Shown here: positions 242 to 46,925 of the stretch, in pieces
Layout: each line of letters starts with the position of its first letter
How positions within the stretch are numbered: position 1 is the first letter of the stretch
From: a candidate division CSSED10-310 bacterium
GTDB lineage: Bacteria > CSSED10-310
Length of the DNA stretch: 56,330 bases
Direction: 5' to 3'
Assembly: GCA_003558985.1 (NCBI GenBank)
Contig: PWNJ01000120.1
Location: 1 to 56,330, forward strand
Position numbers and translations under genes: made by a program
The notes under the pieces: generated by a model
Databases searched by the model: none
The model's input: only the letters and a program-made list of their open reading frames with translations
What the model was told of the DNA's origin: nothing

Positions 242-270
242 CGGATAAACAACCTGCATACCGCGTATGC

Positions 271-7637: not shown

Positions 7638-7648
7638 AGGAGGATTTT

Positions 7649-14141: not shown

Positions 14142-14143
14142 GA

Positions 14144-14956: not shown

Positions 14957-14998
14957 ACTCACCTCCATAAAAACACCGAGGTCGTTGATAAGGGATTA

Positions 14999-16171: not shown

Positions 16172-16944
16172 TGCAGACATTTCCTGCGTCTGGCAATCAC
16201 CGTGACCGGTGCGCCAAACAAATCCCGAAAGCCGGCTTTGGCAAGAACAGATTCGGAAACGGCGGTAAATCCTGAGGAGTTAACAAAACGGTGAAGTCCG
16301 AAAGGTAAAACCAGATGTTTGTCCATAGCAGTAACAACATAATCTTCTGCGTAAAGCGCACTGGTAATGTCGCTGATGTTAAAAACACGATACGATTGAT
16401 GATTTTTTCTGAATGGACGCACCAGATGATGCACAATGGGCGCAAACCCGGCCAGACCGCATTTGGGGGGGAAATCGAGTATGACGGTATTCCGGCTGAC
16501 CCGGCATATTTCTGATAATGTCTGCCGCCAGTTCACAACATGCATGATCAGACGAAATGTTATCACTGTATCAAAAGACTTGTCAGGAAATGGAAGAGTA
16601 TGCGCATCTATTTGGGCCAATTCCAGCGGAATACCCTGAAGAAAGGATTTTTCCTGAATGATAGACAGCATTTTTTCAGATGCATCAGCCGCCAGAACAG
16701 AAGCGCCCAAACGACTTAATGGCAACGCTGTCCTGCCGGTTCCCGCCCCCAGGTCCAGAATACGGCTGCCGGACGGATTATCAATATGTTTCAGAACAAA
16801 TGACAGTTGATGTTCAGCTATGTATCGACCGAAACTGCCACCAAACCGCATTGCATCAAAATTACGTGTGATTGAATCAGTTTGATAGGCGGTATAACTG
16901 TAATGTGTACGATCAGTTTTATTAGTATCTATTGCAGCAGCCAT
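16168..16944 (-). CDS. Class I SAM-dependent methyltransferase (Methyltransf_11-like)
   Basis: ILDLGAGTG, DAHTLPFPDKSFD, EICRV. Confidence 0.88.
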   Translation of the reverse strand: MAAAIDTNKTDRTHYSYTAYQTDSITRNFDAMRFGGSFGRYIAEHQLSFVLKHIDNPSGSRILDLGAGTGRTALPLSRLGASVLAADASEKMLSIIQEKSFLQGIPLELAQIDAHTLPFPDKSFDTVITFRLIMHVVNWRQTLSEICRVSRNTVILDFPPKCGLAGFAPIVHHLVRPFRKNHQSYRVFNISDITSALYAEDYVVTAMDKHLVLPFGLHRFVNSSGFTAVSESVLAKAGFRDLFGAPVTVIARRRKCLQ

Positions 16945-20490: not shown

Positions 20491-23400
20491 CTAAACGGGT
20501 ATGGCCACCAATACAAAGTTTTTCATTGAATAGATCAGTTTTCCGTCAACGATCAGAAACCCGTCAGCGTAAGCGGTTTTTTTAGTATCGTCTACTTTGG
20601 TAATAACCGCCTGAACAGTGACCTGTCTGTTTGAAGGCAGAACCTGTCCACGATAAATCCATTGATGCCGGGCATTGGGATATTCAAATCGATACTGTTT
20701 ATCACCCCATCTTTCCAGTGCGTATACCTGCAACAGTTGCAGCATGGCTTCTATGCCAAGTGAACCAGGCCAGACGGGGTCCTGATAAAAATGAGCCGAA
20801 AAAAACCACTCCTTCGGATCTATTGATTTAGTACCTTCTACCAGACCAAAACCATGGGGGCCGTCATCAATTTTCAGAACAGTAAGTGTGTCAATCATGC
20901 GCAGCGGTGATTCCGGCAGTGACGAATGGAGTGGATAGGAAACAGGCTTTTTTAACAAGTATTTATCTGTATTTACGGGTTTCTGATCTCGTATGCCAAC
21001 CTGTTCGGCAAGCGCGGCCCGGGTAAAGAATCCAAAATAGGTGTCTCCGGTATAGATATCACCTTGTGAGTCATACACAGCAAAATCAAAATGCTGTATA
21101 ATCATGCCTCCTGAATGCGATACTTTCGTTGATTTTACCTCAACAGCCAAAACTGAAGCGGTATCAATATCCGGCATTCTGTGAATAACACCATTTCCTC
21201 CAAGATTTCTGTAAGACAAATCTGTTTGGCTGTATAACGCTGATCCCATATAAGCCGAATACCATCCGCAGGGCTGTAGAGCGATTTCCAGCAATACAGC
21301 AAAAGGCATTCCGGATCGGCCGTTTGCAGCCAGATACCATTCATCTGCCCGCATATCATATTCTGTTATAATCCGGCCTCCGGCTTTCATTATCCATGGT
21401 TCGGCTTCCAGCAAAACAACACGATCAAGAAACTGATAAGGCGGGCCGGGCAATCGGGCTATAATGCGTTCACTGTCAAATATACTGTATTTGTCACCGT
21501 ATGCTTCAGATGGGTTTCCGTTAGAAAATGCCAGAATACTCGATTTGTTATACAATGCCGGACGTGTTCCGGGAATCGGTCGGGTTATGCCAGACACCGG
21601 CCGAGATTTCGCCGACCAGATTTCATTCAGTCGTTCACGGGTCAACCCTGTCAACTGAACCGACATATTCCGAATTTCAACCACCGGTTTGTTATCCGCA
21701 TACATCATAGCATCCGCAACAGCATAAGGTTCCGAATCCAATCCTATTTCCTTGATACACACCTCATAAGCCGCCACACGGGTATTTGAAGTCACTTGCC
21801 CACGGCATTTCAATTGACAGGGTACTCCCGGTTTCGGGTTCCAGCAAAATTCATCCTCCTCACCAACCCAGCCCATACCCATAAGCAATACTTTCAATGC
21901 ATGAAAACAACATTCGTACATCAGCGTTCCGGGCATAACCATGTCGTCAACAAAATGACACGTCAAAAACCATGCATCCGGTTGGATGTCCGCTTCAGCT
22001 CTGATTTTACCCAGTTTCCACTGTCCCCCGACAGGCTCAAACAAAACTATCCGATCGATCAAATGCATTTTACCACCAGGTAATGCTGCCGGATTCTTTA
22101 ACGGTAATCCTTCAAAAGATTCACCAAAACAATCTGTAAGACAGCCCCTGCGCAAAGCATTCACCTGTCTTTCATCAAAAGACTGATCTGTCAGTCTGAC
22201 GTATATATGCTCCGATTCGTTCTGATTTATGTTTTCACATGGTTTTTGAAACGCCGGCTGAATGATGCCCTGCCCTGCTGCCAATTCCTTGTCGGAGAAA
22301 AACCCTGCGGTCCCATTGCGCATACTTAACAAAAGCTCACCATCTATAGATGCGTCATATTCAAAATGAAACAGCCAGATATTTTCTTGCCGGAAAAAAC
22401 GTGTGATTCTGATGGAATACCGAATCGTTTCGCCCGGTTCCGGCAAAGCGCCAGCCATCGTTATTTCAGCGTCAAGAAGCCGGTATTTCTGAACACCTTT
22501 GGTTTCAAAATCAATACCCAGGAATCCCGATAAAAACAGGTCGGCCTGACCTGCTTCAACAGTAATACATACAGGACATTTGCCCTGATCAAGATACCAT
22601 GCGTCCGGAAGAACATCATGTTCGGTAATAATACTTCCGGGTTTCATTGATTTGGGAATGGCATCCACAGATATGATCCGATCAACAAGCATCAGGGGTT
22701 CATCCGGAAGCCGCACCCGGGTTGGATATGTATCTGCTTCCGAAAACTCGGGTCCCAGAACATTGGCAATACTTCCAACAGCAAACTCAAGACATTGTTC
22801 CCGGTCCATAAACACATCGTCCTGTTTTGAAACAGTCTGTTGACAGGGCGCCGTCATTTTATCCGTATCACTATCGCACGGTATATGCGGTAACAGTTCT
22901 GTCTGAAATGACACCAAACGACGCATGGATTCAGTCCAGTTTTGGCTGAGTTCCAGATACTGCTCATGAGCCTTGCGAACAGCAGTTCCAGTCCGATGCA
23001 ATGCGCTGGATAAAAGCGCTTCATTGGATGACATATCTTTTTGGGCTTCTGATTGTGGTGGCCCAGGCATTTTTCTGCTGTCAATATCCTTCACCGCCAA
23101 TCGATAATTGTATGCGCTTTCAGCATTCGGAATGCACGACACATCCAAAGGTGAATTAGGGCCGGGACGCCTCCATGCAGATTCCTTTTCGGAAACCAAT
23201 AATTCCAGGTTGACATTATGTCCTGCGGAGGCAAGCCGTGACAGTAACCCGAATAGTGATTCCGAAGGTTTTTTGTCTCGATTGTCCAGTAAGTCAACCG
23301 AATAGTCCTGACCTTTCAAAATTTGGTGAATCATGTTTGTGCAACTGTTTCCGGGTCCGATTTCCACAAAATGACGCACACCGTCCTGCCAGGCTGTTTT

Positions 23401-26400
23401 TACAGTTTTGACAAAATCAATCCCTTCTGTGGCATGCGCCAGAATGGCATTGGCACATTGATCCGAATTAACCGGGTAAGACTTTCCCCAAGCACCCGAA
23501 TAAACACGTATATCATACGCCTTGTCAACAGGTTGAAAATGCAGTTGGCGATACTCATCAGCAACACCGGACACTTCCGGAATATGTGCAACCGTCACAC
23601 CGGTGACGTCTACGCCCGACAATCCGACATCTTTTAAAAAAGCCTGAAGTTGCGGCCCATGACCTCCAATTACACATTGTTCCGGAGTGTTAATGATAAG
23701 CAGATACACAAGCGGATACTTGCTTAACTGTTTTCGAAGCGTTTCAGCATCACTGTTTACAATAGATATTTTCCATTCAGGATTCGTCCCTTCAGGTAAA
23801 TTCCATGCCTGCACAAGAACATTACACGGACCGGCCAGTTCATTGACAAACAACGTGGAGTTTTGCAGTTGCCGAAGCACTCTGTCCCTGTCCGGCCATA
23901 TTTTCCAACCAACCAATGCCGTTGATTCGCCCAGACTGTATCCAATAACAGCATTCGGTCGAACACCGGATCGACGTATCAGTTCAGTTACAAAATATCC
24001 ATACATGACATGACCAACGATCAAACCGTGCGGATCATGATCCATTTTTTTTCTGTCCGGCTGATTCCAGTAAACCTCCGGTTGAAACATATCTTTCAAT
24101 CGGCAGTTTTCCTTGTCCAACTCATCCAGAATGTGCCTGAAAACAAAACCGGGTTCTCTACCCAAAAATGGCCGATGATTTCCGGAACCCGAATAGACGA
24201 AAGCGGTTTCCGGAACTTTGTCGTTGTTTGCCGAATAATCAAACTGTCTGGCTATATCACTCAGTCGTTCTGTCAGCTCCGGTAATGCCAGCGGTTTGTG
24301 TGATGACGCGTCATGCTCACTCAGACAAACCGTTGCTGAAGCGCCTGAAAACGACTGCGAACAGACGTTTGCAAGCCGGAGACCATCTTCACGGTTTCGG
24401 AGCCAATACTGGGGTCCGGCCGCCTTAAAAGCATGGTCTGCCGGCATAATGCGATGATGTATGGCAATAACCGCCTGAGCCAGTTCATTCAGTCCGCTGA
24501 CTACACCGGTATCACCCGGTAAACAGGATGTTTTACGATTGAACACCACCGATGTTGACAAATCAGGATTGTTATCGCCAGTGTTGTTTCCACTCAGACC
24601 GGACATCATTTCTATGTCATCAATAACTGCCAGAACAGTATCATTCGCCTTTTCGGCATCCTTCAGACGTTTCAGAACAAAGGCTGTTGAACTGTCCATC
24701 ACTGTGTTGGAACCGGTACGCATCTCTGTTCCAATGACATTTCTCCAATCACTGTTCAGATCAACCGCTCCCACAAGGGCCTGACAAATTTCTCCATGCT
24801 GAAGCATTTGAACCGCTGCTGAAAGCGCTGCAATCCCGGACAGCTCATCAGCGGAAACGGTAAACCCGGCTCCACCCACCTTGAACGCACGAGAGACTCT
24901 GCCTGCTACCATACCACCCAATGCGCCCATTGTCCGATTGGCTGTCAGCGCGGGTGACCATGTGTTTTTTATTGTCTCAACACAAATATTTTCCGCGCCT
25001 TGTCCGTTTTGAAGCCATTCAGGCACGATTTTGTCAAGGTGCCATCGAATACAAAAGTTCGTTGTGTTCAGATCAAGTCCGACTCCTATAAACACACCTG
25101 ATTCGACCGCGTCAGACTCGTTCCAGTTTCCCTGATCAATCGCATCCGCGGCTACTTTCAGCATCAGTAACTGCTGCGGAAGCATTTCTTGAAGTTCTGC
25201 TGGCGGGATTCGAAATCGCACCGGAGATACCCCGGTTTTTCCAAGCGGATACTCAGTAAAATTTCCTGGATTGATGACATAATCACAAAACCAATCCGAT
25301 TGATCCAGTCCATTCCATGTGTGTTTACGGTTCGGGTTTTCCAAATCCTTTGACGCATCTTCAATACCTGTAGATATTTTCTGAATACCGTCCATATCCG
25401 TCCACGAGCCTGCTGCGGATGCCATGCTGACAATTGCAATTTTTTCCGGCGCCTTATCCCTTGATTTCCGATTCCTGCTTGTTTGATCGACTTTTTCTTC
25501 AGGAACACGTGAAGGTATATTTGATGAATAGATTTTCTTGCTGTGTAAAAGTTCAGAATTCCATTCTTCAAGCAGCAGATGCGCATTAATACCGCCAAAA
25601 CCAAAAGCGCTGACAGCAGCTCGTCTGGTTTGGTGCTCATTGTCGGCTATCCATGTTTCCGGTTGTTTCAGAATTCTGAAAGGACTGTCATCCAGAGATA
25701 TTTTTGATGATGGTGTGTCATAATTAGCTGATGGAGGCAGCATTCCATGCCTGATCGCCAGTAGCGCCTTTATCAGACCAGCGCCACCGGCGGCTGTTAA
25801 AAGATGGCCTATATTCGATTTAACAGAACCAATAGCACATTTTGTGCCGTTTTCCCGGTTTGAGTTATGCCAAATGTTTAACAATGAAGAGAACTCAACT
25901 GCGTCACCAACAGGTGTTCCGGTGCCATGACATTCCACCAGTTCAACGTCCGACGGCATCCATCCCGCCTGTTTATAGGCGCGTTTCATCGCTCTGATCT
26001 GACCTTCTGAATCAGGAGCAAATACACTTCCGCCAATATCATTTGAAATGCCAATCGCCCGAATTACTCCATAAATTTTGTCCTGATCCCTTACAGCATC
26101 AGAAAGCCGTTTCAATGCAACCATGGCGGCGCCTTCACCGACAACAAGGCCATCGGCTCTGGAATCAAAGGGGGAGCATATTCCCGATGGAGACAACGCC
26201 TGCAGTTGCGAAAATCCCATTTGAGTGTACATACAGTCGGGACGGCTGACCCCTCCAGTTAAAACCATATCCAGTCGGCCGGAAATCAGTTCCATAGAAG
26301 CCAGTTTCAGTGCATATAAGGATGATGCGCAGGCTGCATCCAGAGTATACACGATTCCACTGATTCCAAGTGATTGAGCCAGCATATTTGCCGGCAATGC

Positions 26401-26943
26401 TGCAGGATACAGATTTCGGGTATCATAAAGCGGAGCAGCAGTTTTCGGTTGAATGCCGGTAACAAGATGGTTGATACCCGGTAAAACCAGGTCGGCTGAT
26501 ATTTCAGAAGCTTTGCTTGTTGGCAGAATAATGTTACCCAGAATAATGCCTGTCCTGTCGCTATCGGGATAGCTACCGCAAATATCCTGGTATAAAAGAT
26601 GACCGGTGTGCAGTGTCAGATGAAATACCGGATCAAGCTGACTCAAATCAAATTGGTTGCGAAGCGCATCTGGAATATCAGGCAATGAGTCCAGCAGACA
26701 AGCGTGCACAGACCGTGTTTTATCCGGTTTGAGAGTATTAGAATGAACTGATTGAGGTGCGACCGGCCAGCGAGTTTCCGGTATTATTGAGGATGCATGA
26801 TCTCTTTTCAGAATCATCTGCCATAAATCATCAGGTGTCGGCGCTTTCGGCAAAGTTGCGGCCATGCCGACGATTGCTATTCCGGATGCGTCATGAAGTG
26901 CGTCATAACCACCGGAAATTTTTGTCCGTTTATTACCATTCAT
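20491..26943 (-). CDS. pfaC: PUFA-synthase subunit, fused PfaBC/Pfa3 type: KS-CLF-AT-DH'-DH-DH'-DH
   Basis: KS DAACASS/ECHGTGT/KSNIGH; Cys-less CLF (SADELSG); AT GYSLGES; FabA-like DH motifs CHFVDDMVMPG..E and AHFYQDPVWPG..E. Confidence 0.9.
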   Translation of the reverse strand: MNGNKRTKISGGYDALHDASGIAIVGMAATLPKAPTPDDLWQMILKRDHASSIIPETRWPVAPQSVHSNTLKPDKTRSVHACLLDSLPDIPDALRNQFDLSQLDPVFHLTLHTGHLLYQDICGSYPDSDRTGIILGNIILPTSKASEISADLVLPGINHLVTGIQPKTAAPLYDTRNLYPAALPANMLAQSLGISGIVYTLDAACASSLYALKLASMELISGRLDMVLTGGVSRPDCMYTQMGFSQLQALSPSGICSPFDSRADGLVVGEGAAMVALKRLSDAVRDQDKIYGVIRAIGISNDIGGSVFAPDSEGQIRAMKRAYKQAGWMPSDVELVECHGTGTPVGDAVEFSSLLNIWHNSNRENGTKCAIGSVKSNIGHLLTAAGGAGLIKALLAIRHGMLPPSANYDTPSSKISLDDSPFRILKQPETWIADNEHQTRRAAVSAFGFGGINAHLLLEEWNSELLHSKKIYSSNIPSRVPEEKVDQTSRNRKSRDKAPEKIAIVSMASAAGSWTDMDGIQKISTGIEDASKDLENPNRKHTWNGLDQSDWFCDYVINPGNFTEYPLGKTGVSPVRFRIPPAELQEMLPQQLLMLKVAADAIDQGNWNESDAVESGVFIGVGLDLNTTNFCIRWHLDKIVPEWLQNGQGAENICVETIKNTWSPALTANRTMGALGGMVAGRVSRAFKVGGAGFTVSADELSGIAALSAAVQMLQHGEICQALVGAVDLNSDWRNVIGTEMRTGSNTVMDSSTAFVLKRLKDAEKANDTVLAVIDDIEMMSGLSGNNTGDNNPDLSTSVVFNRKTSCLPGDTGVVSGLNELAQAVIAIHHRIMPADHAFKAAGPQYWLRNREDGLRLANVCSQSFSGASATVCLSEHDASSHKPLALPELTERLSDIARQFDYSANNDKVPETAFVYSGSGNHRPFLGREPGFVFRHILDELDKENCRLKDMFQPEVYWNQPDRKKMDHDPHGLIVGHVMYGYFVTELIRRSGVRPNAVIGYSLGESTALVGWKIWPDRDRVLRQLQNSTLFVNELAGPCNVLVQAWNLPEGTNPEWKISIVNSDAETLRKQLSKYPLVYLLIINTPEQCVIGGHGPQLQAFLKDVGLSGVDVTGVTVAHIPEVSGVADEYRQLHFQPVDKAYDIRVYSGAWGKSYPVNSDQCANAILAHATEGIDFVKTVKTAWQDGVRHFVEIGPGNSCTNMIHQILKGQDYSVDLLDNRDKKPSESLFGLLSRLASAGHNVNLELLVSEKESAWRRPGPNSPLDVSCIPNAESAYNYRLAVKDIDSRKMPGPPQSEAQKDMSSNEALLSSALHRTGTAVRKAHEQYLELSQNWTESMRRLVSFQTELLPHIPCDSDTDKMTAPCQQTVSKQDDVFMDREQCLEFAVGSIANVLGPEFSEADTYPTRVRLPDEPLMLVDRIISVDAIPKSMKPGSIITEHDVLPDAWYLDQGKCPVCITVEAGQADLFLSGFLGIDFETKGVQKYRLLDAEITMAGALPEPGETIRYSIRITRFFRQENIWLFHFEYDASIDGELLLSMRNGTAGFFSDKELAAGQGIIQPAFQKPCENINQNESEHIYVRLTDQSFDERQVNALRRGCLTDCFGESFEGLPLKNPAALPGGKMHLIDRIVLFEPVGGQWKLGKIRAEADIQPDAWFLTCHFVDDMVMPGTLMYECCFHALKVLLMGMGWVGEEDEFCWNPKPGVPCQLKCRGQVTSNTRVAAYEVCIKEIGLDSEPYAVADAMMYADNKPVVEIRNMSVQLTGLTRERLNEIWSAKSRPVSGITRPIPGTRPALYNKSSILAFSNGNPSEAYGDKYSIFDSERIIARLPGPPYQFLDRVVLLEAEPWIMKAGGRIITEYDMRADEWYLAANGRSGMPFAVLLEIALQPCGWYSAYMGSALYSQTDLSYRNLGGNGVIHRMPDIDTASVLAVEVKSTKVSHSGGMIIQHFDFAVYDSQGDIYTGDTYFGFFTRAALAEQVGIRDQKPVNTDKYLLKKPVSYPLHSSLPESPLRMIDTLTVLKIDDGPHGFGLVEGTKSIDPKEWFFSAHFYQDPVWPGSLGIEAMLQLLQVYALERWGDKQYRFEYPNARHQWIYRGQVLPSNRQVTVQAVITKVDDTKKTAYADGFLIVDGKLIYSMKNFVLVAIPV

Positions 26944-26965
26944 TACAGGGTCACCTTTTCATTGT

Positions 26966-29900
26966 TCATTCTTTGCGGTGTGCCCTGAACGCTTCCTTGA
27001 GGCCTTTATCTGCAATACATTCCAACCCTTCGATACAAGCAATAATCTTACCTGATGGGTCGCTGAAATATACATCTGAAATAATTTGAGCCGATTGACG
27101 GTTTTTAATTCTTATGTCAACATTAGCTCTTGAAGGCATTTTTTTGACAAATTGAGTATAGCGTTTCAGTCCGCACGGAAGTGATGGCATATCCAAATTC
27201 AGCGTTGTCCACAATATGACAAGCTGGAATGCCGCATCTATAATCCCGGGATCAGTGATCCATTGCTTCCTTAACGGCCTTTTTAACCATTTCGCAGGTT
27301 CTGGTGATCCGTCAGCGACACCATGTATCCCTTTTTGACTCATTCCTTCAACTGAGCGCACCCCCTGAAGCATTTTACCGTGAAACAACACATCCTGATA
27401 AAGCTGATTCCGTTGTACCGGACAGGGCTCCATCGTTTCAAACGGAAGGGGCGGTTTGACTGGTTCCAGGAACTGTTTTGAGAGCATTACATCAGTTGAA
27501 ACATGAACATATTTTTTGCCATCTGACTGAATACCCCGTAACTCGACCGGTACATAGATGGTATTACTGTCTTGTTTGAATACTCCCGCCTTGGCTTCCA
27601 GTTCAAGCGGAGTTTTTTCAGAAAGGATTATCCCTTTAAGAAGTCTGAAGTCGTCAAAAGCCAGAAAATTCAGATCCGAATGTATTTCAAGCGCACAGGA
27701 AGCACACCATTCCATCAACAGTGCCATCGGTACAACAGGTCGTTTGTTTATCAGATGATGTTTTAACACCGGAACTGAGTCTGGCGACAAAACCAGGTTA
27801 AAAACTTCACGCCATTTTATATCCGTAGGCCCTGCTTCCGGACCGGTTTTATCTACCAGGTTGTTTTCGGTCAACTCCGGCCTGAGGTCCTGTGGCAGAT
27901 CGGTATCGGGTTCTGTAGTTCCCATAACCACAATTTCTGCTGGAGCAGGTTTTTCAGGTGTGTGTTCCAGGCAGAGTTCTCTGATCAGATGACGCGCGCC
28001 AGACCGTATATCTATTACCTCTACATTTTCTTTTCTGAACAGTTCTTTCAATTCAGGTGTCACCATTCCACCGTCCCATGGACCCCAGTTGATAGACATC
28101 GTGCGGCACATTGGATACATTTTTGCCACTTTTGCTGCAAATTTGTTAAGCACTTCGTTTGCCATAGCATAATCAACCTGACCTGTACGTCCGAAACGAG
28201 CGGTACTTGAAGAAAACAAAATGATCGTTTTCATTGTTTCAAGTGTCAGATTTTCTGCAAGGCAACGCAAACTTTCTACTTTCGTATTTACAACCTTGCA
28301 AAAATCATCCTCAGATTTGTTGTCAATCAAGTTATCGGCGATAATTCCTGCGCCATGAATTAGCCCGGCAAGTGTAAATCCCGATTGATCCATTCTTTTT
28401 GTAAGGGTGCTTACCTGAACAGAATCAGTCAGATCAACCTGTTCGTATTGAACTTGCACTCCTATGGTTTTCAAGGTTTTAACCGTATTGTAGATCTCAC
28501 GGTTATTCATATATCGCAAATATTCTGTCTGCAGTTCTTTGGGCGTCAGTTTTTTATTCGCCTGTTCCATAATTGCCTTTTTGATTTCAGCATCATCCGA
28601 TATTCCTGCCAACCATTCCGGTTCCGGTTCAGGAGGTTGGCTTCTTCCGGCGAGGACAAAATTTGTCCTGAATCGCCTGGCAATTTCAATCACGCAGGCC
28701 GCGGTCACCCCGCGAGCGCCGCCGGTTGCCAAAAGCCAGTCACCCTCGACAAGCGGTTCCCGGGTCAGTCTTTTCGGATCAATGGGTTCATCTTGCATGA
28801 CAACTTGAACCTTGCCCCGGGATGAAAAACCTGTTTCAAGGGGGCCTTCACGGAACATCTCTTCTATCAAATCATTAAGATCGGGTTCATATTTCCTGTC
28901 AGCATCCACATCAATTATTCTGCAGTAAACTTCCGGCCATTCCTGTCGAATTGTTTTTACAAGTCCGGACAGAGCGGCAGTCATGGGTCTGTAATCAGTC
29001 AATGTGTCATGTAAACCCAACGCTCCATCCAATCGTAGCAGTGATATGATTGCGGGGGTTGATTTGTCAGAACGGCTGGGGTTTCTGACTTTTTTACTAA
29101 CCAGTTTTACAAGTTTAAACAACTTTTGCAGATACTCCATATCACATGAGTCCCGTGGTCCGACCAGAATCAAACCGGCAACATCATCAGGCAATTCTAC
29201 AAATTCAAGATAATCCAGCGAAATAATTCGAACAGGAATATACATGTTTTCCAATGCTTCCAATAGCAATTCACTCAATCCGCAATCGTCACGCGTGATC
29301 CAGATTTCAGCATGTTCAGGTAAAACAATTTTATTGCGGTTCGTTTCATTCAAAGGTTGAAGGGTCAGGATTTTTCTGTCCATTCGATACAGTTTGTCGG
29401 GCACAGATTCGGACACTTTCGGTTCGGATTCAGTGTTGACAACAGCAGGGGACGGCGCAGGTTCAACCGGAGGTTCCAACTGGTCCGCTTTCATAGTCTG
29501 CTTGCCTAAAGTACCTTTTAAAGCTGTCACAAGGTTTTCAATATTCCCGATGGAGCGCAATTCAGCTAACTGTTCCGGTTTAATGCCGGGAAGACCGGGA
29601 ATTGTCTCCTGTAACGCAGACATGATCTCAACACGCTTGATGGAATCAATGCCCAGATCAGCATCCAATTCCATGTCCGGTTCAAGTAAATCGGAAGGAT
29701 AACCCGTTTTGTCCGCAATAATACCGCGCACGGTTTCAACGATAGAATCACTTGTGACATCCTGTTTGATCTGAATGGGTTGAGTGTCAAACGGACTTGC
29801 TTTACCTGATGACGGTTTTGCGGATTCAACTTCAGGGGATTCCGTCGATGTTTTCTGGAGTATTGATTTTTCAGAAATTTCGGGCGCTGACATATCGGAC

Positions 29901-32900
29901 GCATTTATAAGCGCAGCGATATCATTTAACGTATGAATCGAACTCATCTGATCAGGCGCAATTTGAGTAATTTCCGGCAACTCTTCCTGAAGTGCGGACA
30001 TGATTTCCACTCGTTTAATGGAATCAATACCCAAATCGGCATCCAACTCCATGTTTGGTTCAAGCAAATCGGTTGGATACCCCGTTTTGTCAGAAACAAC
30101 CTTGCAAACAATATCCAGAACAGACTCATCTGTAATCCGGGGGGGTTCTCCATCGGTATGTCCTGGTGTTGCTGATGATTCGGCAGGCGCTTTTCCCTGA
30201 GCAACCGTGTGATGTGTTTTTGAAACAGACTTGCCAGAACTGGCCGGAACCAAATTGTTCAACAAATGAATAACATCCCGCAAAGTGCGAATAGAAGCCA
30301 TTTGATCCGGTGCAATAGGCCCTGTTTCTTGCAATTGTTCCTGAACAGCAGACATGATTTCAACACGTTTAATCGAATCAATACCCAGATCAGCATCCAG
30401 TTCCATTTCCGGTTCAAGCAGTTCCGACGGATACCCTGTTTTTTCCGAGACAATGGTCAGCACCATTTCGGAATAATCCGGTTTATCCGTCTCAATGTCT
30501 TCCTGTTTCATATCAGTTGTCTTCAGTTCAACCGTTTCGGACGGCTGGGAGCGAACAGATGATACATGTGTGACCGATTGCTGTACAGGAGGCGTTCCGG
30601 TCAGAACGTGTTGCTGTTGCGCTATCAGGTTTTGAAAAGCCTGTTGAGCCTCCATCTGTCCCGTCAGAAATTTTTGGTGCAGCAGAGCGGTTTGCTCCTG
30701 CAATTGCTGCAATCCTTCCAGATTTTTCTGAATGGATTCGAATGCTTTTGACGCAGGGACACTGCGATTATCCTTGCTCATCACAGACGAGTGTTTTTCT
30801 TCGGGCTGCCCGATTTCCCGTTGTATTTTGAATTCCGGTAATGAGCTTTTCTGTCGCACATAGTTTGAACCGGTCAGAGTGACCTGCATTTTGCTTCCGG
30901 CGTGATCTGTTGACGGCACATATTCCTGATCCCACTCGTTCACACTGATGGAATATCCCAGACTGGCAAGGGCTGCAATGGTGCGTGCAAGATCGATTTG
31001 ACCTGAGCGTTTGCCTGATGACGCATCCAGTGAAATAAGACGCACGCTCGTATCATCAAGGATAGCACGTATTAAACCGGCCATTCGTTTACCCGGCCCG
31101 ATTTCCACAAACGTTCGAACACCATCTGCGACCATTTGCTGAATTTCTGACACAAATTCAACCGGTTTTTCCAGTTGAGACGCCAGGATTTCTCTGATTT
31201 TCTTTTGTTGAGAAGGATATGTGACACCTGTTGTGTTGGAGTATACCGGAAACAGCGGTTTTTGAAATGTTATCCTGTCCAGATATTGTCCGAACGGTTT
31301 ACTGGCATCCGCGACCAGAGGACTGTGAAATGCGGCTGATACTTTTAATGGTGTAATGGTGAAATTACGTTTCCTGAAACAGTCCACGGCACGCGCTATT
31401 TCTTTGGTAGCGCCTGATATCACTGACTGATTCGGAGCATTTTTGTTGGCAATTACCAAATCAAGCTGTTCATCTTTCAAAACAACCGATATATCTTCAG
31501 CCGATGCCTGAACAGCAGCCATACCGCCACGATCCTCATCGCCGTTACTCATCAATCTTCCCCGTAACGAAGACAGATAGTTGAACTCATCCAATGAGAT
31601 CATTCCGGCAGCATACATTGCACAAATTTCACCGTAACTGTGACCGGCAGCCGCATCAACACTCAAACCGAAATGATGCGTCAAAACCTGCCATGCGCCA
31701 ATGCTTACAGCTCCAATCCCGGGCTGTGCATACTGAGTCTGTTTCAGTGTTTCAATCTGTTCATTTCTTTGCTTGTCATTAAACGTTGACAGCGGATAAA
31801 TGATTTTACTCAAGCGATTCGTATCGGATTCCGGAGCATTTTCGGCAAAAGCCCTGTCAGCATTCTCAAGTATTTCCCGAAACACAGGAAACCGGCATGC
31901 TGTATCCCGAAGCATATCGGGATATTGATTTCCCTGACCTGGAAATACGGCCGCCAGTTTTCCGGGAATATTTCCAACTCCGTAAAACATGCCATCGGGA
32001 GTATCCCACGATGTGTCCGGGGTTGCGCTAATACGACTCAGAGCCATTTTAAGCATATCTGCCAGTTGATTCGCACTTGTAACAACCATCAGCCAGCGAT
32101 GGCGGTGATCGGATTTGAATGTATCTCTGGTCTCTTTGGCAACGGCTCTTAAATCAAGATTATCCTCTGGAATGGATATATTTTTAATCGAATCAAGCAA
32201 AGCGCTGGTATTATCAGCAGAAAAAGCGACTATCTGCACCGAGCCATCCCAATCAGGCGGGGATGGTGTTCCGGTGTGTTCTTCAAGGACGCAATGAAAA
32301 TTGCTACCACCAAATCCAAAGGAACTGACAGCAGCCCGCCGTGGGTGGTTATCGGGTGTAAGCCATGGTCTTGCAAGTGTCGGCAGATAGAATGGCGATA
32401 GCCCGTTGGCCAGAGTTTTTGTTGGAGTGGAAACCTTTGCAACCGGTGGAATAACCCGATGATGCAATGCCAGCGCTGTTTTTATCAGCCCTGCTATCCC
32501 TGCGGCGGCTTTGCCATGGCCAATTTGTGCTTTTACTGAACCAACTGCACACCATTTGCCATCCGATTTTGCTTCACGGTAGACATCCGTCAAAGCTTCA
32601 AGCTCAATAGCATCCCCGACCGGAGTGCCTGTTCCATGCGCTTCAACCAGTTGAATGGTATCCGGTGATACATCCGATTCCTGATACGCACGTTTTAATG
32701 CTTTTTTCTGGCCGGAAGCAGACGGCGCATAAATCGCGTTTCCCTTACCGTCACTTGAAGCGCCGGTTCCCCGAATAACAGCATAGATTGTGTCTCCGTC
32801 GCGTTCAGCATCTGTCAGCCGCTTAAGGGTTACAACCCCAACGCCTTCGCCGATCGCTGTTCCATCTGCAGCGGCATCAAACGGCCTTGCATGGCCGGTG

Positions 32901-33673
32901 GGTGACATCGCTTTGGTTTTGGAAAAACACATATACATAAAAATATCATTAAACGTGTCAACACCGCCGGTAATAACCATATCCGCCTTTTGTGTCTGAA
33001 GCTCCATCATGGCGGTGTGTACGGATGCCAACGAACCTGCACAGGCCGCATCAACCACACAGTTCATTCCGCCAAAATCAAACCGATTCGCTATTCGACC
33101 GGCAACAACATTGCCCAGCAATCCCGGAAATGATGCTTCCTGCCAACCAACAAGTTTATGGTTGATGCGCTGCGTTATCTGATCAGCTTCGGACTCCGTT
33201 AACCCACATTCAATCAGTGTTTTGCGCATAAGCGGATGATACAACCTGGCACCCAAAGTTATAACCAGTTGTTGAGCGCCGGTAACACCAAGAATTATGC
33301 TGACGCGATCCCTGTCCAGAGCAGCGCCGTTAGTGTAGCCCGCATCTTTAAGCGCCTGTTTGGCCGCCAGAAGCGTCAACAACTGAGAGGTGTCTGTAGC
33401 CTCTAGAGCATTTGGCGCAATACCGAATTCCATCGGATCAAAAGACACCGGATCCAGAAATCCCCCGGTTCGAGCATGTGTGTGGTCGGGTTTGGCCGGG
33501 TCGGGATCAAAATAATCCTTTAGCGACCAGTGCGTTTCGGGAATCTCGGTCAGACAGTCAATACCTGACACAATGTTAGCCCAAAACATGGACGTGTCGG
33601 ATGCTTTTGGAAACAGGCATCCTATTCCGGTTATGGCAACCGGTGAGTTTTTATTTGATACGGACTGAGTCAC
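26966..33673 (-). CDS. pfaA: PUFA-synthase subunit, PfaA/Pfa2 type: KS-MAT-(ACP)3-KR-DH
   Basis: KS DAACAGS/EAHGTGT/IGH; AT GHSYG, AFHS; three LGIDSIKRVEI ACPs; KR TGGARGV, YAMAN; DH HH.....PVVP..DAAFQ. Confidence 0.93.
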   Translation of the reverse strand: MTQSVSNKNSPVAITGIGCLFPKASDTSMFWANIVSGIDCLTEIPETHWSLKDYFDPDPAKPDHTHARTGGFLDPVSFDPMEFGIAPNALEATDTSQLLTLLAAKQALKDAGYTNGAALDRDRVSIILGVTGAQQLVITLGARLYHPLMRKTLIECGLTESEADQITQRINHKLVGWQEASFPGLLGNVVAGRIANRFDFGGMNCVVDAACAGSLASVHTAMMELQTQKADMVITGGVDTFNDIFMYMCFSKTKAMSPTGHARPFDAAADGTAIGEGVGVVTLKRLTDAERDGDTIYAVIRGTGASSDGKGNAIYAPSASGQKKALKRAYQESDVSPDTIQLVEAHGTGTPVGDAIELEALTDVYREAKSDGKWCAVGSVKAQIGHGKAAAGIAGLIKTALALHHRVIPPVAKVSTPTKTLANGLSPFYLPTLARPWLTPDNHPRRAAVSSFGFGGSNFHCVLEEHTGTPSPPDWDGSVQIVAFSADNTSALLDSIKNISIPEDNLDLRAVAKETRDTFKSDHRHRWLMVVTSANQLADMLKMALSRISATPDTSWDTPDGMFYGVGNIPGKLAAVFPGQGNQYPDMLRDTACRFPVFREILENADRAFAENAPESDTNRLSKIIYPLSTFNDKQRNEQIETLKQTQYAQPGIGAVSIGAWQVLTHHFGLSVDAAAGHSYGEICAMYAAGMISLDEFNYLSSLRGRLMSNGDEDRGGMAAVQASAEDISVVLKDEQLDLVIANKNAPNQSVISGATKEIARAVDCFRKRNFTITPLKVSAAFHSPLVADASKPFGQYLDRITFQKPLFPVYSNTTGVTYPSQQKKIREILASQLEKPVEFVSEIQQMVADGVRTFVEIGPGKRMAGLIRAILDDTSVRLISLDASSGKRSGQIDLARTIAALASLGYSISVNEWDQEYVPSTDHAGSKMQVTLTGSNYVRQKSSLPEFKIQREIGQPEEKHSSVMSKDNRSVPASKAFESIQKNLEGLQQLQEQTALLHQKFLTGQMEAQQAFQNLIAQQQHVLTGTPPVQQSVTHVSSVRSQPSETVELKTTDMKQEDIETDKPDYSEMVLTIVSEKTGYPSELLEPEMELDADLGIDSIKRVEIMSAVQEQLQETGPIAPDQMASIRTLRDVIHLLNNLVPASSGKSVSKTHHTVAQGKAPAESSATPGHTDGEPPRITDESVLDIVCKVVSDKTGYPTDLLEPNMELDADLGIDSIKRVEIMSALQEELPEITQIAPDQMSSIHTLNDIAALINASDMSAPEISEKSILQKTSTESPEVESAKPSSGKASPFDTQPIQIKQDVTSDSIVETVRGIIADKTGYPSDLLEPDMELDADLGIDSIKRVEIMSALQETIPGLPGIKPEQLAELRSIGNIENLVTALKGTLGKQTMKADQLEPPVEPAPSPAVVNTESEPKVSESVPDKLYRMDRKILTLQPLNETNRNKIVLPEHAEIWITRDDCGLSELLLEALENMYIPVRIISLDYLEFVELPDDVAGLILVGPRDSCDMEYLQKLFKLVKLVSKKVRNPSRSDKSTPAIISLLRLDGALGLHDTLTDYRPMTAALSGLVKTIRQEWPEVYCRIIDVDADRKYEPDLNDLIEEMFREGPLETGFSSRGKVQVVMQDEPIDPKRLTREPLVEGDWLLATGGARGVTAACVIEIARRFRTNFVLAGRSQPPEPEPEWLAGISDDAEIKKAIMEQANKKLTPKELQTEYLRYMNNREIYNTVKTLKTIGVQVQYEQVDLTDSVQVSTLTKRMDQSGFTLAGLIHGAGIIADNLIDNKSEDDFCKVVNTKVESLRCLAENLTLETMKTIILFSSSTARFGRTGQVDYAMANEVLNKFAAKVAKMYPMCRTMSINWGPWDGGMVTPELKELFRKENVEVIDIRSGARHLIRELCLEHTPEKPAPAEIVVMGTTEPDTDLPQDLRPELTENNLVDKTGPEAGPTDIKWREVFNLVLSPDSVPVLKHHLINKRPVVPMALLMEWCASCALEIHSDLNFLAFDDFRLLKGIILSEKTPLELEAKAGVFKQDSNTIYVPVELRGIQSDGKKYVHVSTDVMLSKQFLEPVKPPLPFETMEPCPVQRNQLYQDVLFHGKMLQGVRSVEGMSQKGIHGVADGSPEPAKWLKRPLRKQWITDPGIIDAAFQLVILWTTLNLDMPSLPCGLKRYTQFVKKMPSRANVDIRIKNRQSAQIISDVYFSDPSGKIIACIEGLECIADKGLKEAFRAHRKE

Positions 33674-35340
33674 AATACCACCTCGTTTAAATCAAGATAA
33701 TCGCGTAACATATCCAGCGAAGCGGGTGTTACATTAAACAAACTTCGTGGAACTTCAAACGCATGAGTTTGAAGATTCCTGCACCGAAACAACACCGCAG
33801 CGCCCCACAGAATATTCAGTAACATCGTTGTAATACGTCGATTTTCTGGCGTTTCCAGAAAACTGCCGTACACCCATTGATTGAAAGCGCCCATGGCTGG
33901 ACCGCACCAGACCTGATAATCCGCTTTTCTGACAGACAAGCCAGCGTTTGCCCATCGGGAGGACAACCCAAGATACCATCGAAAAACCAGGGCCATTCTA
34001 TGTTTGGAGTCTCTGTTGGCACGTTCAATTTGAGATGGATCACGCCGGTTCCAGAATGTCCGGGTCTCCTCCCATATCGTGTCCAGAGATGCTTTGAAAA
34101 CCGTTTTCTCCAATTGCATCCGTTCTTTCAGAGGCAACGCTTCCAGACTGTCATGGTTCCTGTATAATTCATACAGTTTTCTGGCTCGCATCGGAAAAAG
34201 CGTTCCGCGTTTCAAAACCTGCAGATTTACACCCATTTCGAACATATCTGCCGCTGGCGCCATAGCAGTTTCCGCCTGTTTTACCTCCGACAACATCTGC
34301 CGAACAATATCAGATGAACCGGATTCGACCGCGGCCTGAGCAATTGAACCAACCATAACCCAGCCGGCGCCCATAGCAAATGCTGCTGCAGCCGCTGCAG
34401 GAGTACTGATGCCGCCGGCCGCTCCCACACGTAACGGCGTCGTATATTCGTATTCTTGCATACATTTCCGGGCCACCGCCTGAAAAGACGGTATCAATGC
34501 CACCAGAGGCCGATTGTCTGTATGACCACCCGAATCTGCCTCGGCGGTAATATCATTTGCCAGAGGAATACAGGAAGCCATTTCTGCAACCTGTTCAGTG
34601 ATAACACCACTGAAGACCAGTTCCCTAAGAATTTTTTCCGGGGGTGGAGAAAAAAACCGCTCAGCAATTTCAACCCGTGATGCCTTGGCAAGAATTCTAT
34701 TCGGAGCAACAATCGCTCCGGATACATCCCTGTGCAACCCGTGAAGGCGATATCGGACCAGAGAGGGTGTAATCGTCAGATACGCAGACGCTTCCACACG
34801 GGTAATGTTTTTACGAATCAGCAAATCAACCAGATGCTCCTCAAGAATAGACTCATGTGGGGAGTGTATCAAATTGACACCCCAGGGTCTGCTGCCGCAA
34901 CTCTGGAATAATTTCTCTATCGCTCTTTCAACCGTATCAATATCCTGACCGGCAGCGCCATAAAAACCGGTCATGCCAGCTTTGGACAGAGACGACACCA
35001 ATTCGACCGAACTGATACCGTTCGCCATTGATCCCGAAAGAACAGGATATTGAATGCCCCAGTCACGGCAAAATGACACATCCCCCAGCATATCGGGCGG
35101 ACATGAAGGCGCATGCGCAATAATCGGGTAACAGCCATTTGTTGCGTCAGAAGGTATTGAATATACCTTTCTGCCTGACAAACCCGGGAATGCGAAACCA
35201 TTATTAGTATTAATAATTGTAACTGGTTGATATATATTGTTAATTTTAGCTTTTAAACGATTTGTGTCATACGCTTCTATATCACCTGAAGATATCCACC
35301 ATCCATATTCATTCATTGATTTTAATTCACTACGCGTCAT
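33670..35340 (-). CDS. pfaD: PfaD-family trans-acting enoyl reductase
   Basis: GSMANGI, VEASAY, EADSGGHTDNRP, APAADMFEMGV, QVWCGPAMGAFN; start re-called to ATG 35340 (RBS AAAGGA). Confidence 0.93.
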   Translation of the reverse strand: MTRSELKSMNEYGWWISSGDIEAYDTNRLKAKINNIYQPVTIINTNNGFAFPGLSGRKVYSIPSDATNGCYPIIAHAPSCPPDMLGDVSFCRDWGIQYPVLSGSMANGISSVELVSSLSKAGMTGFYGAAGQDIDTVERAIEKLFQSCGSRPWGVNLIHSPHESILEEHLVDLLIRKNITRVEASAYLTITPSLVRYRLHGLHRDVSGAIVAPNRILAKASRVEIAERFFSPPPEKILRELVFSGVITEQVAEMASCIPLANDITAEADSGGHTDNRPLVALIPSFQAVARKCMQEYEYTTPLRVGAAGGISTPAAAAAAFAMGAGWVMVGSIAQAAVESGSSDIVRQMLSEVKQAETAMAPAADMFEMGVNLQVLKRGTLFPMRARKLYELYRNHDSLEALPLKERMQLEKTVFKASLDTIWEETRTFWNRRDPSQIERANRDSKHRMALVFRWYLGLSSRWANAGLSVRKADYQVWCGPAMGAFNQWVYGSFLETPENRRITTMLLNILWGAAVLFRCRNLQTHAFEVPRSLFNVTPASLDMLRDYLDLNEVVL

Positions 35341-35485
35341 AAACAATCCTTTCGCCACTGTTGTGACAATGCTCTTCATAACAGATTTATACCAATATAT
35401 CAAGTCTGGATGATGCACAAAGGGTTAAGATTCAACAACTTATGACGCATCGCGTCACATTTGATTGCATGATGTGTCAGGGACT

Positions 35486-38400
35486 CTATAATCCGACAAG
35501 CCTGAATGCTGCCCAGCACATCGGTTCGGAATGTTCCGGTTGGTTTCGAAGTGTTTTTTGAGCATTTTGCAATGCCTGTGCCGGAGACATATTCTTCAAT
35601 ACCAGGTTTCGATAAAATTCATTCATTATCAGATAAGCGCTCTTGTCCGGAACACTCCACAAACTGCCAAGAATTCTTCGTGCGCCGGCCAGCAGAAACC
35701 CGGTAAATAAACCAATCCCTTCATCCGGCAGAAGATCAGTCTCGGCAATACCTGATTCACATGATGAAAGCACAACCAGTTCTGTCCCTGAAAGATTCAA
35801 ATCTCGCAATATGTCTGAAAGTGTCCAGACAGTTTCTTTTAACCCGGACTTTGAATAACTATCAGACTTGCCTGAACCAGACGGTTTCGAATCAGTTATT
35901 CCATGCCCGTCTGCATTTGTGAAAGTCAGCCGGGACGAATACGGATCGCCGGTATCAAACATCGCATGACAACAGAAATGCAGAATATCATATCCTGATG
36001 CGGCAGCATTGATTGCATCTGAAAGCGAATGGGTCCCGTCCAGACAATGTTTATTTTTAAACAGTGAGCTGATCGTTTCAATTTCTGTTCGAATCCATCT
36101 TAGATTTGGATCCGAATCGGAAATACCCAGAAACGACTTTTCTGATGAAGATTTCAGAGGTTTACCTGTGTTATTCACAAGCGAAAACGCAGGCAGATAG
36201 TTAATCTCAAACATATCCGCCAAATATGGTTTTTCAGGGGCGTCCAGATCACGAGCAAGATGAAATGGAAGTATATTCAATTCCTTATGCGTAACCAGAA
36301 ACAGACGCTTGACATTCAGTTTTTTCAGATATCGGATTGTTTCACTCATCAAATTTGTTGACAGGTTGTCCATAAGCGACAGCAAATCCTTGTTCCAGCG
36401 TGTGTATCTGTCAAACTGCATTTTAGAAAATTGCTGGAATTGGCTGATTGGAGGCAGTTCTTGTTGACGGTAATCATTCAATTCGGTATTCAATTGCAGA
36501 AATTGTCTGGCAATGGCGTTCAGGTGATCATACTTAAATGAATCAGCAAAGACTGTATGCACCACAGTTTGTTCGGGATTTCCCGACAGAATAACGCTAA
36601 ACGATCCGTATCGGGTTACATTGAATATGACAAAAGCGGTGTTTTCGGAATCCGGCAACAGTGTCGTCATATGATTAAATGTCACTTCGCTGGACAGAAA
36701 AGACGGCTCATATTGTCGAATCCTGTCTGAGAGGCTCTTCAAATCAGATAACGCCTTCCGCATTTCATCTGCAATCCCGGTAAAAGCACGATTCTGTATT
36801 CTGGATTGCTGTTCAGCGGTGAGTTGTCTGATTTTACTGATTAATTGTTTATATTCATCCTGATGATGTTTTTTTAAACTGTCAAAAACGATTTTATCAT
36901 AAGACATTCTGTCTTTGAATAATTGCATTTTACCAGTTTCCAGCCATTCCAGAGCTTCAGTGATGCGCCCGCATTTTGCCAGACACCAGGCGGCACGTGA
37001 ATACACCATTCCGGTTATTCTGACTCGCCGGCTTTTACTGGACAGGGTAATATCCAGCTTGCTTAACTCATTGTCTATTTTTCGAATTTCATTGAAAACA
37101 GGTATGGCGGCATTCCAGTCAGTCTGATTCATCAGTATCTCCGAGACTGCCACCAGAATCTCAAGGCGCTGACGCGGGAAATGGTCAAATGTAAATACAG
37201 ACAACGCTGCTTTCAGGTGATCAAGAGCGATGTTTTGATTGGATAAACCGGTGCCATCCGGCATATTTACCATTGCCAAAGCAAGGTTCTTGTTGATATT
37301 TGCCCACTCAATCGGTGTTGTTTTCATATTAAAAACAGTCAAAGCATTTCGGCAGTAATCAAGAACTGCCTGGATGTTTTCGTTCTTGCTGCCGATCGCA
37401 CGCTCACTATAAGCGGTAGCAAGATTAGCGTTTACTCTGGCCCAGCCAGATGGCGTTTTGTCTTTTGTGCGTATCTTCAGCGCTTCTTTGTAATGATGAA
37501 TCGCTGATTCGATACGATCAATCCCGGTTTGAGAGTTCCTGATACTGTCTTGTCTTCCCAGTTCAAGCATTGTGTTACCCAGATTTGTCTGAACCATTGC
37601 CCATTCATTCGGAAATGTCTGAATCGTAAACACCTCCAGCGATTGCTGCAGGTGCGCAACAGCAGATTCCAGATTCTCAGTGCGTTCACCCCGAATTCGT
37701 CTGGTAAACACCGTTGACATGTTAAGATGAGTTTTCGCCCGATAAACGGGGAAATCGAAATCTGAAAAGACGTCAAGAGACCTGTTATAGAATTGAATCG
37801 CCTTCTCCAGATTTTCGTTCTGATCACCCAGCGATCTTGATGAAAAAGCTATTGCCAGATTCATCAACGTGACAGCATGGTTCAACGGATGTGTATCAGC
37901 AGAATACCCTTCAAGCGCCTGCAAATAATGGTGAATAGACTGTTCGGCATTGTTAACATCCGGTGTTGCGGGAGCATTCTTCCATGCAATACCCAAATAA
38001 CTTTGAATACGAGCCCATTCAACCGGTATTAAATCGCGCCGGTATTCCTCCAAAGCCGCCTCACAACATCGGATTGCATTCACGCTGTTGGTTACAGCAT
38101 TTTTAGTCCGATTGGTCAAATGCGCGGCACACAGTTTCTGCTGCAACTCGCCCCAAAATAATGGATATCGTGAACGGTCAAGGTTTTTTATACCATTGTT
38201 CAAAAAATGAATTCTTTCATCAGCAGACAGCGGTTTTTCAGAATTTTCTATCTCTTGCAGTGTCCGGACATAAACTTCAGGAATACTTTCAAGAATACTC
38301 GGCTGCACACTATGCCCCTTGCCAAACAGGGTTGTGTCTATGCCGTTGGTAATACAGTTGTATAATAAATGTATTTTTTCAGATAATGATTGTACTTTAT

Positions 38401-38548
38401 TGAAGTCTGAAAATGCCCGCATTTCAGACCGCTCGTCAACTAATACCTGTAACAGTTTCTTATCCAGAATTTCCGGACAGGTTTTCAATAGTCTGTAACG
38501 AAGAAATACTCCGGGAGACTGAAAAAAATCCTTCAACAATGAATGCAT
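35486..38548 (-). CDS. TPR-repeat CHAT-domain (caspase/separase-like) protease
   Basis: ~46-aa TPR-like repeats (WA..Q.NLG....R..G....N.E.A); His in LHFCCHA, Cys in VLSSCESG, GSLWSVPD, WAAF. Confidence 0.88.
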   Translation of the reverse strand: MHSLLKDFFQSPGVFLRYRLLKTCPEILDKKLLQVLVDERSEMRAFSDFNKVQSLSEKIHLLYNCITNGIDTTLFGKGHSVQPSILESIPEVYVRTLQEIENSEKPLSADERIHFLNNGIKNLDRSRYPLFWGELQQKLCAAHLTNRTKNAVTNSVNAIRCCEAALEEYRRDLIPVEWARIQSYLGIAWKNAPATPDVNNAEQSIHHYLQALEGYSADTHPLNHAVTLMNLAIAFSSRSLGDQNENLEKAIQFYNRSLDVFSDFDFPVYRAKTHLNMSTVFTRRIRGERTENLESAVAHLQQSLEVFTIQTFPNEWAMVQTNLGNTMLELGRQDSIRNSQTGIDRIESAIHHYKEALKIRTKDKTPSGWARVNANLATAYSERAIGSKNENIQAVLDYCRNALTVFNMKTTPIEWANINKNLALAMVNMPDGTGLSNQNIALDHLKAALSVFTFDHFPRQRLEILVAVSEILMNQTDWNAAIPVFNEIRKIDNELSKLDITLSSKSRRVRITGMVYSRAAWCLAKCGRITEALEWLETGKMQLFKDRMSYDKIVFDSLKKHHQDEYKQLISKIRQLTAEQQSRIQNRAFTGIADEMRKALSDLKSLSDRIRQYEPSFLSSEVTFNHMTTLLPDSENTAFVIFNVTRYGSFSVILSGNPEQTVVHTVFADSFKYDHLNAIARQFLQLNTELNDYRQQELPPISQFQQFSKMQFDRYTRWNKDLLSLMDNLSTNLMSETIRYLKKLNVKRLFLVTHKELNILPFHLARDLDAPEKPYLADMFEINYLPAFSLVNNTGKPLKSSSEKSFLGISDSDPNLRWIRTEIETISSLFKNKHCLDGTHSLSDAINAAASGYDILHFCCHAMFDTGDPYSSRLTFTNADGHGITDSKPSGSGKSDSYSKSGLKETVWTLSDILRDLNLSGTELVVLSSCESGIAETDLLPDEGIGLFTGFLLAGARRILGSLWSVPDKSAYLIMNEFYRNLVLKNMSPAQALQNAQKTLRNQPEHSEPMCWAAFRLVGL

Positions 38549-46837: not shown

Positions 46838-46925
46838 AGTCTATCCTCATATCGTTTCACAACCGAACACCCGATGTCTGTCTGACTGACGAATGCTCAG
46901 ATCGTTATTTTTACACATCGTTATG

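Follow-up and report, generated by a model that had tools for sequence, protein, structure and literature searches.

The DNA analysed here (the window, a stretch of 56,330 nucleotides; contig PWNJ01000120.1) comes from a metagenome-assembled genome (MAG) of a candidate division CSSED10-310 bacterium and carries pfaD, pfaA and a pfaBC fusion gene, which encode a predicted polyunsaturated acyl synthase. We consider it likely that this synthase feeds the synthesis of a very long polyunsaturated hydrocarbon, together with OleABCD enzymes encoded elsewhere in the same genome. The release step that seemed to be absent from the window is explained by genes outside it. Judged by its genes and domains, the cluster is of the published Type I pfa-like kind (Geobacter/planctomycete) and not of the myxobacterial type. 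Type I clusters carry a pfaBC fusion, occur in Geobacter, Desulfuromonas, Pelobacter and Gemmata, and have been proposed to supply olefin precursors (Shulse & Allen 2011, PMC3098273).

Genes for the synthase and for its partners

The window (C179; G+C content 45.5%) is one of the 259 contigs of a 2.79-Mb MAG with a completeness of 60% and a contamination of 0.6%. The list of open reading frames (ORFs) gave pfaD, pfaA and pfaBC as three intact, tightly packed and co-directional ORFs of the minus strand, with pfaA overlapping the pfaD stop by 4 bases. ORFs, family scans and motif checks agreed with a preliminary description made from the letters of the window in gene order, in domain order and in that the catalytic motifs are intact (Table 1). 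The pfaD product matched the Pfam families NMO and FabD_helical_ins. An in-frame ATG at 35340, where the preliminary description had placed the end of the cluster, would give a 556-aa pfaD product; in an N-terminal alignment with the closest relatives it agreed with their pfaD starts more closely than the GTG upstream of it did, and is the likely true start. The attachment sites of the three acyl carrier proteins (ACPs) of PfaA, of the form DS[IL], lay at about aa 1105, 1223 and 1349.

In the PfaBC protein (PfaC below), the second ketosynthase (KS)-like domain reads S-a-d-E at the position equivalent to the KS cysteine, and there is one KS-cysteine motif in the whole protein. Its assignment as a chain-length factor (CLF) fits because the active-site cysteine is missing, as expected of such a factor. 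The acyltransferase (AT) domain has diverged, with a Pfam score of 24 bits against a cut-off of 32.7, yet in an alignment with 11 relatives it retained the serine (GYSLG, aa 1009–1013) and the conserved histidine (in TVAH). A linker of about 30–40 residues before this AT was missing in the window (23305–24400, PfaC aa ~850–1213) and in two related loci, L004 and L023. PfaC ends 10 residues past its last dehydratase (DH) domain, and a Pfam scan found no AGPAT domain (PF01553) on it, in agreement with the preliminary description. The sole PF01553 gene found in the MAG was a separate 263-aa open frame for a PlsC-type acyltransferase on contig C143.

Family scans of the window found no phosphopantetheinyl transferase (PPTase), thioesterase, dedicated thioester reductase or ole gene, as had been noted before; this holds for the window only. 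The wider search that the preliminary description had proposed, for an Sfp-type PPTase and ole genes in the whole genome, recovered both, on contigs C121 and C168. On C168, a contig of 6.1 kb, oleA, oleB, oleC and oleD stand in a row with overlapping ends, oleA being cut at its 5′ end by the contig start. OleA and OleC were found with queries from a related locus, at 58% and 52% identity. The four encoded a thiolase-fold OleA, an alpha/beta-hydrolase OleB, an AMP-dependent OleC and a short-chain dehydrogenase/reductase (SDR) OleD. In NCBIfam, OleA scored 399.5 bits on PRK09258 (cut-off 285) and OleC 696.7 bits on PRK09274 (cut-off 478), OleB gave haloalkane-dehalogenase-like matches, and for OleC and OleD the ole models outscored all other models of the class by a wide margin. 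An alignment showed that OleA retains the three thiolase residues: cysteine in SNACLG, histidine in HQ and asparagine in GN. The G+C content of C168 was 46.8%.

Two PPTases were encoded in the MAG, an AcpS-type enzyme on C128 and a 228-aa two-domain Sfp-type enzyme on C121. The best NCBIfam match of the latter was HetI, and it shared 34% identity with the PPTase encoded after oleD in L011, a locus from a planctomycete.

Linkage of pfa and ole in related loci

Relatives were scanned with one genome per species, and 25 loci encoding a PfaC relative (41–56% identity) were found in Planctomycetota, Desulfobacterales, Nannocystaceae, Elusimicrobiota, Thermoanaerobaculales and unclassified bacteria. 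An OleA homologue was encoded directly after pfaC in 21 of the 25 loci, and all four ole genes were present in 15; in 8 sampled loci the series thiolase, hydrolase, AMP-binding and 3-beta-HSD was confirmed with Pfam. Two ole-linked loci were from Gemmataceae MAGs. The four loci without oleA after pfaC were L012 and L014, which extend only 495 and 898 bases past pfaC, and L004 and L023. These last two are the closest relatives of the window, at 62–63% identity in PfaD, 63–65% in PfaA and 56% in PfaC, and have the entire downstream gene order in common with it. Their genomes (G007 and G008) carry oleABCD on contigs other than that of pfa, and the Ole proteins are 66–77% identical to those of C168. 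In a further genome of the same family but another genus (G004), pfaD, pfaA, pfaC, oleA, oleB, oleC and oleD are contiguous on one contig.

One of the records, L006, is titled 'Candidatus Woesearchaeota archaeon'. It carries a bacterial-type pfaC-oleABCD, placed with Desulfobacterales by the OleC tree, and is probably a mis-binned contig.

A search of a large protein collection scored 7999 candidates, of which 4925 were at E ≤ 1e-20. Named proteins among the best 120 of the 4925 were from Geobacter pelophilus, Trichlorobacter lovleyi, T. ammonificans and Geomobilimonas luticola, at 42–47% identity; Gemmataceae, Verrucomicrobiota, Elusimicrobiota and Desulfuromonadales were likewise found there, in the same range. 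The AGPAT domain was listed for none of these 120.

Co-occurrence and trees within the phylum

The phylum was sampled with 14 species genomes. pfaD was found in five of them, all of the window's family, and the same five had an OleD match above 400 bits. The sole family member without pfaD (G005, 90% complete) had no OleD match above 400 bits.

Trees of PfaC (19 rows, FastTree) and OleC (19 rows, quick IQ-TREE search) were built after loci with a partial, frameshifted or fused copy of the gene had been excluded (L005–L007, L016 and L018–L021 from the former; L005, L007, L012–L014, L017, L019, L021 and L028 from the latter). Both gave the branching (G004,(own,(G007,G008))), with support of 99–100, where "own" is the genome of the window. 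Identities to G007 and G008 were comparable for the two sets of proteins, 56–65% for Pfa and 66–77% for Ole. The linked pfa-ole order of G004 and of most outgroup loci is probably ancestral, and the split probably arose in the branch to this genome and genus g5.

In a genome of another family of the phylum (G012, 96% complete), oleABCD lies at 7591–12194 of L039 (G012:C157), and its Ole proteins share only 37–48% identity with their counterparts in the window's genome. The olefin pathway of G012 is presumably fed by ordinary fatty acids.

Proposed pathway and its alternatives

In the pathway that we propose, the Sfp-type PPTase of C121 would activate the three ACPs of PfaA, on which PfaA, PfaBC and PfaD would build a polyunsaturated acyl chain iteratively. 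OleA may then draw directly on the PfaA ACPs and join two acyl chains, both still bound to ACP, by head-to-head condensation; conversion of the OleA product into a very long polyunsaturated hydrocarbon would fall to OleD, OleC and OleB. In Shewanella and E. coli, OleA was shown to link the pfa and ole pathways, and in Shewanella it was argued to take 16:4n-3 directly from the PfaA ACPs, the thioesterase PfaT being regarded as accessory and not as the release enzyme (Allemann et al. 2019, PMC6463001). C31:9 is produced by Geobacter bemidjiensis, whose genome has a tandem array of pfaD, A, B, C, oleA-D and pfaE (Yoshida et al. 2016, PMC4882568); this hydrocarbon has been described as characteristic of all Gemmataceae (Limnoglobus description, PMC7397252). 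With these reports, the earlier expectation of a product of wholly unknown structure no longer stands: by analogy, the product here may be C31:9 hentriacontanonaene, formed from two 16:4 chains. The AT of PfaC carries the GYSxG hallmark of bacterial PfaB, for which a terminal or late acyl-transfer role has been proposed (Lofeudo et al. 2026, PMC12895367). Off-loading by this domain, as suggested in the preliminary description, may thus provide a second exit, towards membrane lipids; OleA is the likelier one.

Several observations weigh against this pathway. pfa and ole are on separate contigs in this genome and are not adjacent in its closest relatives, G007 and G008, either; because the genes are not adjacent, the case for coupling here is made by their co-occurrence and by the agreement between the PfaC and OleC trees. 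G012 has oleABCD but no pfaD, so the Ole enzymes of the phylum can work without a Pfa synthase. OleC scored 613 bits on the olefin beta-lactone synthetase model and OleD 431 bits on the 2-alkyl-3-oxoalkanoate reductase (OleD) model, below the equivalog cut-offs of 850 and 580. C168 is short and was assigned by binning to a MAG that is 60% complete; its G+C content and the 66–77% identity of its Ole proteins argue for membership without proving it. An Sfp-type PPTase is present too in G005, G009 and G011, which have no pfa, and its use as a pfa-specific marker is unsupported. The chain length of the product is not readable from sequence, and the cited literature, in the parts drawn on here, reports no genetic or biochemical test of any Type I cluster.

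Alternatively, the synthase might make a long-chain polyunsaturated fatty acid (PUFA), like eicosapentaenoic, arachidonic or docosahexaenoic acid, for membrane phospholipids: the GYSLG AT would off-load it to a soluble ACP or to CoA, a housekeeping PlsC would esterify it, and ole would act independently on ordinary fatty acids. The intact AT with its PfaB hallmark, the late acyl transfer described for PfaB, the PlsC-type acyltransferase on C143, the lack of linkage between pfa and ole in this genome and the occurrence of ole without pfa in G012 are all in keeping with such a role. We nevertheless regard it as unlikely. Among named relatives, the nearest belong to Type I with linked ole, C31:9 is reported for both G. 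bemidjiensis and Gemmataceae, and the fatty-acid table for Gemmataceae in the Limnoglobus description contains no PUFA (PMC7397252). Within the family, PfaC and OleC branch alike, and the AT is equally present where ole follows directly, so that it is no marker of a PUFA-only system. A membrane role need not exclude olefin synthesis, since Shewanella does both.

It is also conceivable, though with a rather low probability, that the split of pfa and ole in this genome and in genus g5 reflects a functional uncoupling. A synthase with a shortened and diverged AT region would then release a polyunsaturated acid or other membrane lipid, and OleABCD would act on ordinary fatty acids. If true, evolution would here have diverted a Type I synthase from olefin synthesis to another use, in a phylum without cultured members.

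Still more doubtful is release of some other secondary lipid by a thioesterase or reductase encoded in the unassembled 40% of the genome. The incompleteness of the MAG leaves room for it, no PfaT-like hotdog thioesterase (4HBT_2, PF13279) was found in the 60%-complete genome, and no product of a Type I cluster has been directly demonstrated. No partner of this sort stands beside pfa in the 25 loci or in the family, and no PfaT-like thioesterase adjoins pfa or ole in the loci of the window's family; the recurrent neighbour is ole.

The presence of both gene sets adds a small uncultured sediment phylum to the lineages with a Geobacter/planctomycete-type Pfa synthase and OleABCD. Such lineages may be where the polyunsaturated hydrocarbon of the C31:9 type that occurs in anoxic and cold settings comes from. 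The contrast within the family, with seven genes in one block in one genus and a split arrangement in two genera, could be used to probe whether linkage matters for the hand-over from the PfaA ACPs to OleA.

Other features and neighbouring genes of the window

The features of the window are collected in Table 1. Scans for promoters and terminators at the operon ends found nothing above shuffled expectation on the relevant strand.

Table 1. Positions of annotated features in the 56,330-nucleotide window (KR, ketoreductase)
Feature	Position	Strand	Details
tRNA-Glu(ttc) and tRNA-Lys(ttt) genes	169–343	-	Sole Rfam matches in the window, at its start
pfaBC fusion gene, KS-CLF-AT-(DH'-DH)×2	20491–26943	-	2150 aa; family scans
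Second FabA-type dehydratase domain, aa 2009–2140	20524–20919	-	His in AHFyqDPVwPG
First FabA-type dehydratase/isomerase domain, aa 1616–1765	21649–22098	-	His in CHFvDDmVMPG
PfaB-type acyltransferase, aa 906–1213	23305–24228	-	TIGR02816 pfaB_fam, 95.8 bits, below cut-off 144.3
Chain-length-factor-like KS domain, ~aa 470–900 (limits approximate)	24244–25536	-	Second Pfam ketoacyl-synt stretch; without active-site cysteine
PfaC KS domain, aa 21–408	25720–26883	-	Cysteine in DAACASS; HGTGT and NIGH
pfaA-like gene, KS-AT-ACP×3-KR-DH	26966–33673	-	2235 aa; TIGR02813 omega_3_PfaA, 1500 bits (cut-off 1010)
PfaA C-terminal PKS-type dehydratase, ~aa 1956–2220	27014–27808	-	Pfam PS-DH, 36.7 bits; PKS_DH_N, 24.5 bits, below cut-off 27
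PfaA KR domain, aa 1648–1867	28073–28732	-	Pfam KR, E = 7.4e-30
Three tandem PfaA ACP domains, ~aa 1069–1385	29519–30469	-	Pfam PP-binding in three stretches; LGIDSI attachment site in each
PfaA malonyl-type acyltransferase, aa 576–862	31088–31948	-	Pfam; motif GHSYG
PfaA KS domain, aa 10–413	32435–33646	-	Pfam; active-site cysteine in DAACAGS; HGTGT motif
pfaD-like enoyl reductase gene	33670–35418	-	582 aa from GTG at 35418; TIGR02814 pfaD_fam, 606.6 bits (cut-off 449)

A block at 12109–16944 on the minus strand encodes a methyltransferase, a GT4 glycosyltransferase, a hexapeptide acetyltransferase, a flippase-like (LPG_synthase_TM) protein and an HpnA-like SDR. At least the GT4, flippase-like and SDR genes stand together in 11 of the 14 phylum genomes, with or without pfa, and the block is probably an envelope glycoconjugate module. 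The SDR (12109–13134) was rejected as an OleD or thioester reductase, with 27–29% identity to true OleD and an HpnA-type epimerase as its best model. That the pfa product is passed to this block to form a glycolipid, as in heterocyst glycolipid synthesis, has next to no probability and was rejected: synteny of the block with pfa is seen in the window and in both L004 and L023, and the SDR gave weak matches, at 64 bits to Thioester-redct (cut-off 213) and at 109 bits to the OleD model, but the SDR is matched best by the sugar-epimerase-type HpnA model, the GT4, flippase-like and SDR genes stand together in the pfa-less G001, G002, G003, G009, G010 and G012, the block of G004 is on contig C43 and its pfa-ole on C5, and genes for a CCA-adding/poly(A) polymerase, an Rsm22-like methyltransferase and an outer membrane protein (OMP) lie between pfaC and the block. 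The OMP beta-barrel gene after pfaC and the OMP gene after ole in G012 are unrelated.

On the other side of the cluster, a gene for a 1020-aa TPR and CHAT (caspase-like) protein (35486–38548, minus strand) lies upstream of pfaD, runs in the same direction and stops 67 bases before it; beside pfa in L004 and L023 no counterpart was present. Genes for a MarR-family regulator, a lysine 2,3-aminomutase (434 aa) and a GNAT acetyltransferase (278 aa) follow one another at 46001–48631 (minus strand), and we take the last two to resemble the ablA/ablB route to the osmolyte N-epsilon-acetyl-beta-lysine. The plus-strand gene at 3489–8893 encodes a 1382-aa protein whose PPDK_N and PEP-utilizer mobile domains are confined to the final ~450 residues, the first ~900 residues matching no Pfam family. 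It is followed by a divergent gene for a protein resembling glyceraldehyde-3-phosphate dehydrogenase (419 aa).

Comparison with known systems

The myxobacterial pfa1-pfa2-pfa3 PUFA synthases (Sorangium, Aetherobacter) carry a C-terminal AGPAT on Pfa3. The cluster shares with them the three-gene layout, the enoyl reductase gene in first place and the AT inside the KS-CLF-DH protein; gene order and AT fusion were what the preliminary description had matched to this type. In contrast to Pfa3, PfaC here has no AGPAT. The named homologues were from Geobacter, Trichlorobacter, Gemmataceae and the other groups given above, and the best 120 of 4925 homologues had no AGPAT either; a myxobacterial affinity was thus rejected. 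The Nannocystaceae relatives that were found (L020 and L021) are ole-linked.

Gammaproteobacterial pfaABCDE clusters (Shewanella, Photobacterium, Moritella), which have unlinked oleABCD and pfaT, resemble the cluster in chemistry and domain set and in the GYSxG PfaB-type AT (PMC12895367), and the lack of linkage between pfa and ole is as in Shewanella. The cluster differs from them in that pfaD comes first, pfaB is fused into pfaC and PfaA has three ACPs, and in that no pfaE is adjacent, the Sfp-type PPTase being on C121, and no PfaT-like thioesterase was found in the MAG. The solved structure that PfaBC (residues 21–736) matched best was 6riw_A, a KS-CLF of the PfaC type, and the score was only 315 bits over 716 residues.

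The closest likeness in layout is to the Type I clusters of G. bemidjiensis Bem (tandem pfaD-pfaA-pfaB/C-oleABCD-pfaE) and of Gemmata and other Gemmataceae. The differences from the Type I tandem cluster are that pfa and ole are on separate contigs, that the PPTase gene is neither beside pfa nor on the ole contig, that the host belongs to a small uncultured phylum, and that PfaC is about 150 aa shorter, which we put down to the missing linker before the AT. In the PfaC tree the window's family was sister to other ole-linked sequences; this tree was built without references of the other 19 types, and so does not cover an exclusive placement in Type I. Close orthology to a characterised cluster with a known product in a known producer lineage, the outcome that the preliminary description had named as refuting its own proposal, is largely there, although 42–47% identity is not close and the Type I product has not been shown genetically.

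As in Type I, pfaD is followed by a pfaA of the form KS-MAT-ACPn-KR (MAT, malonyl-type AT) and by a pfaBC of the form KS-CLF-AT-DH2, with the catalytic residues present and no separate pfaB. A full oleABCD set is present in the genome and the tandem arrangement is found in a sister genus (G004). By gene set, domain content and co-occurrence with ole, the cluster is an ordinary new member of the published Type I pfa/ole system and opens no new kind of chemistry.

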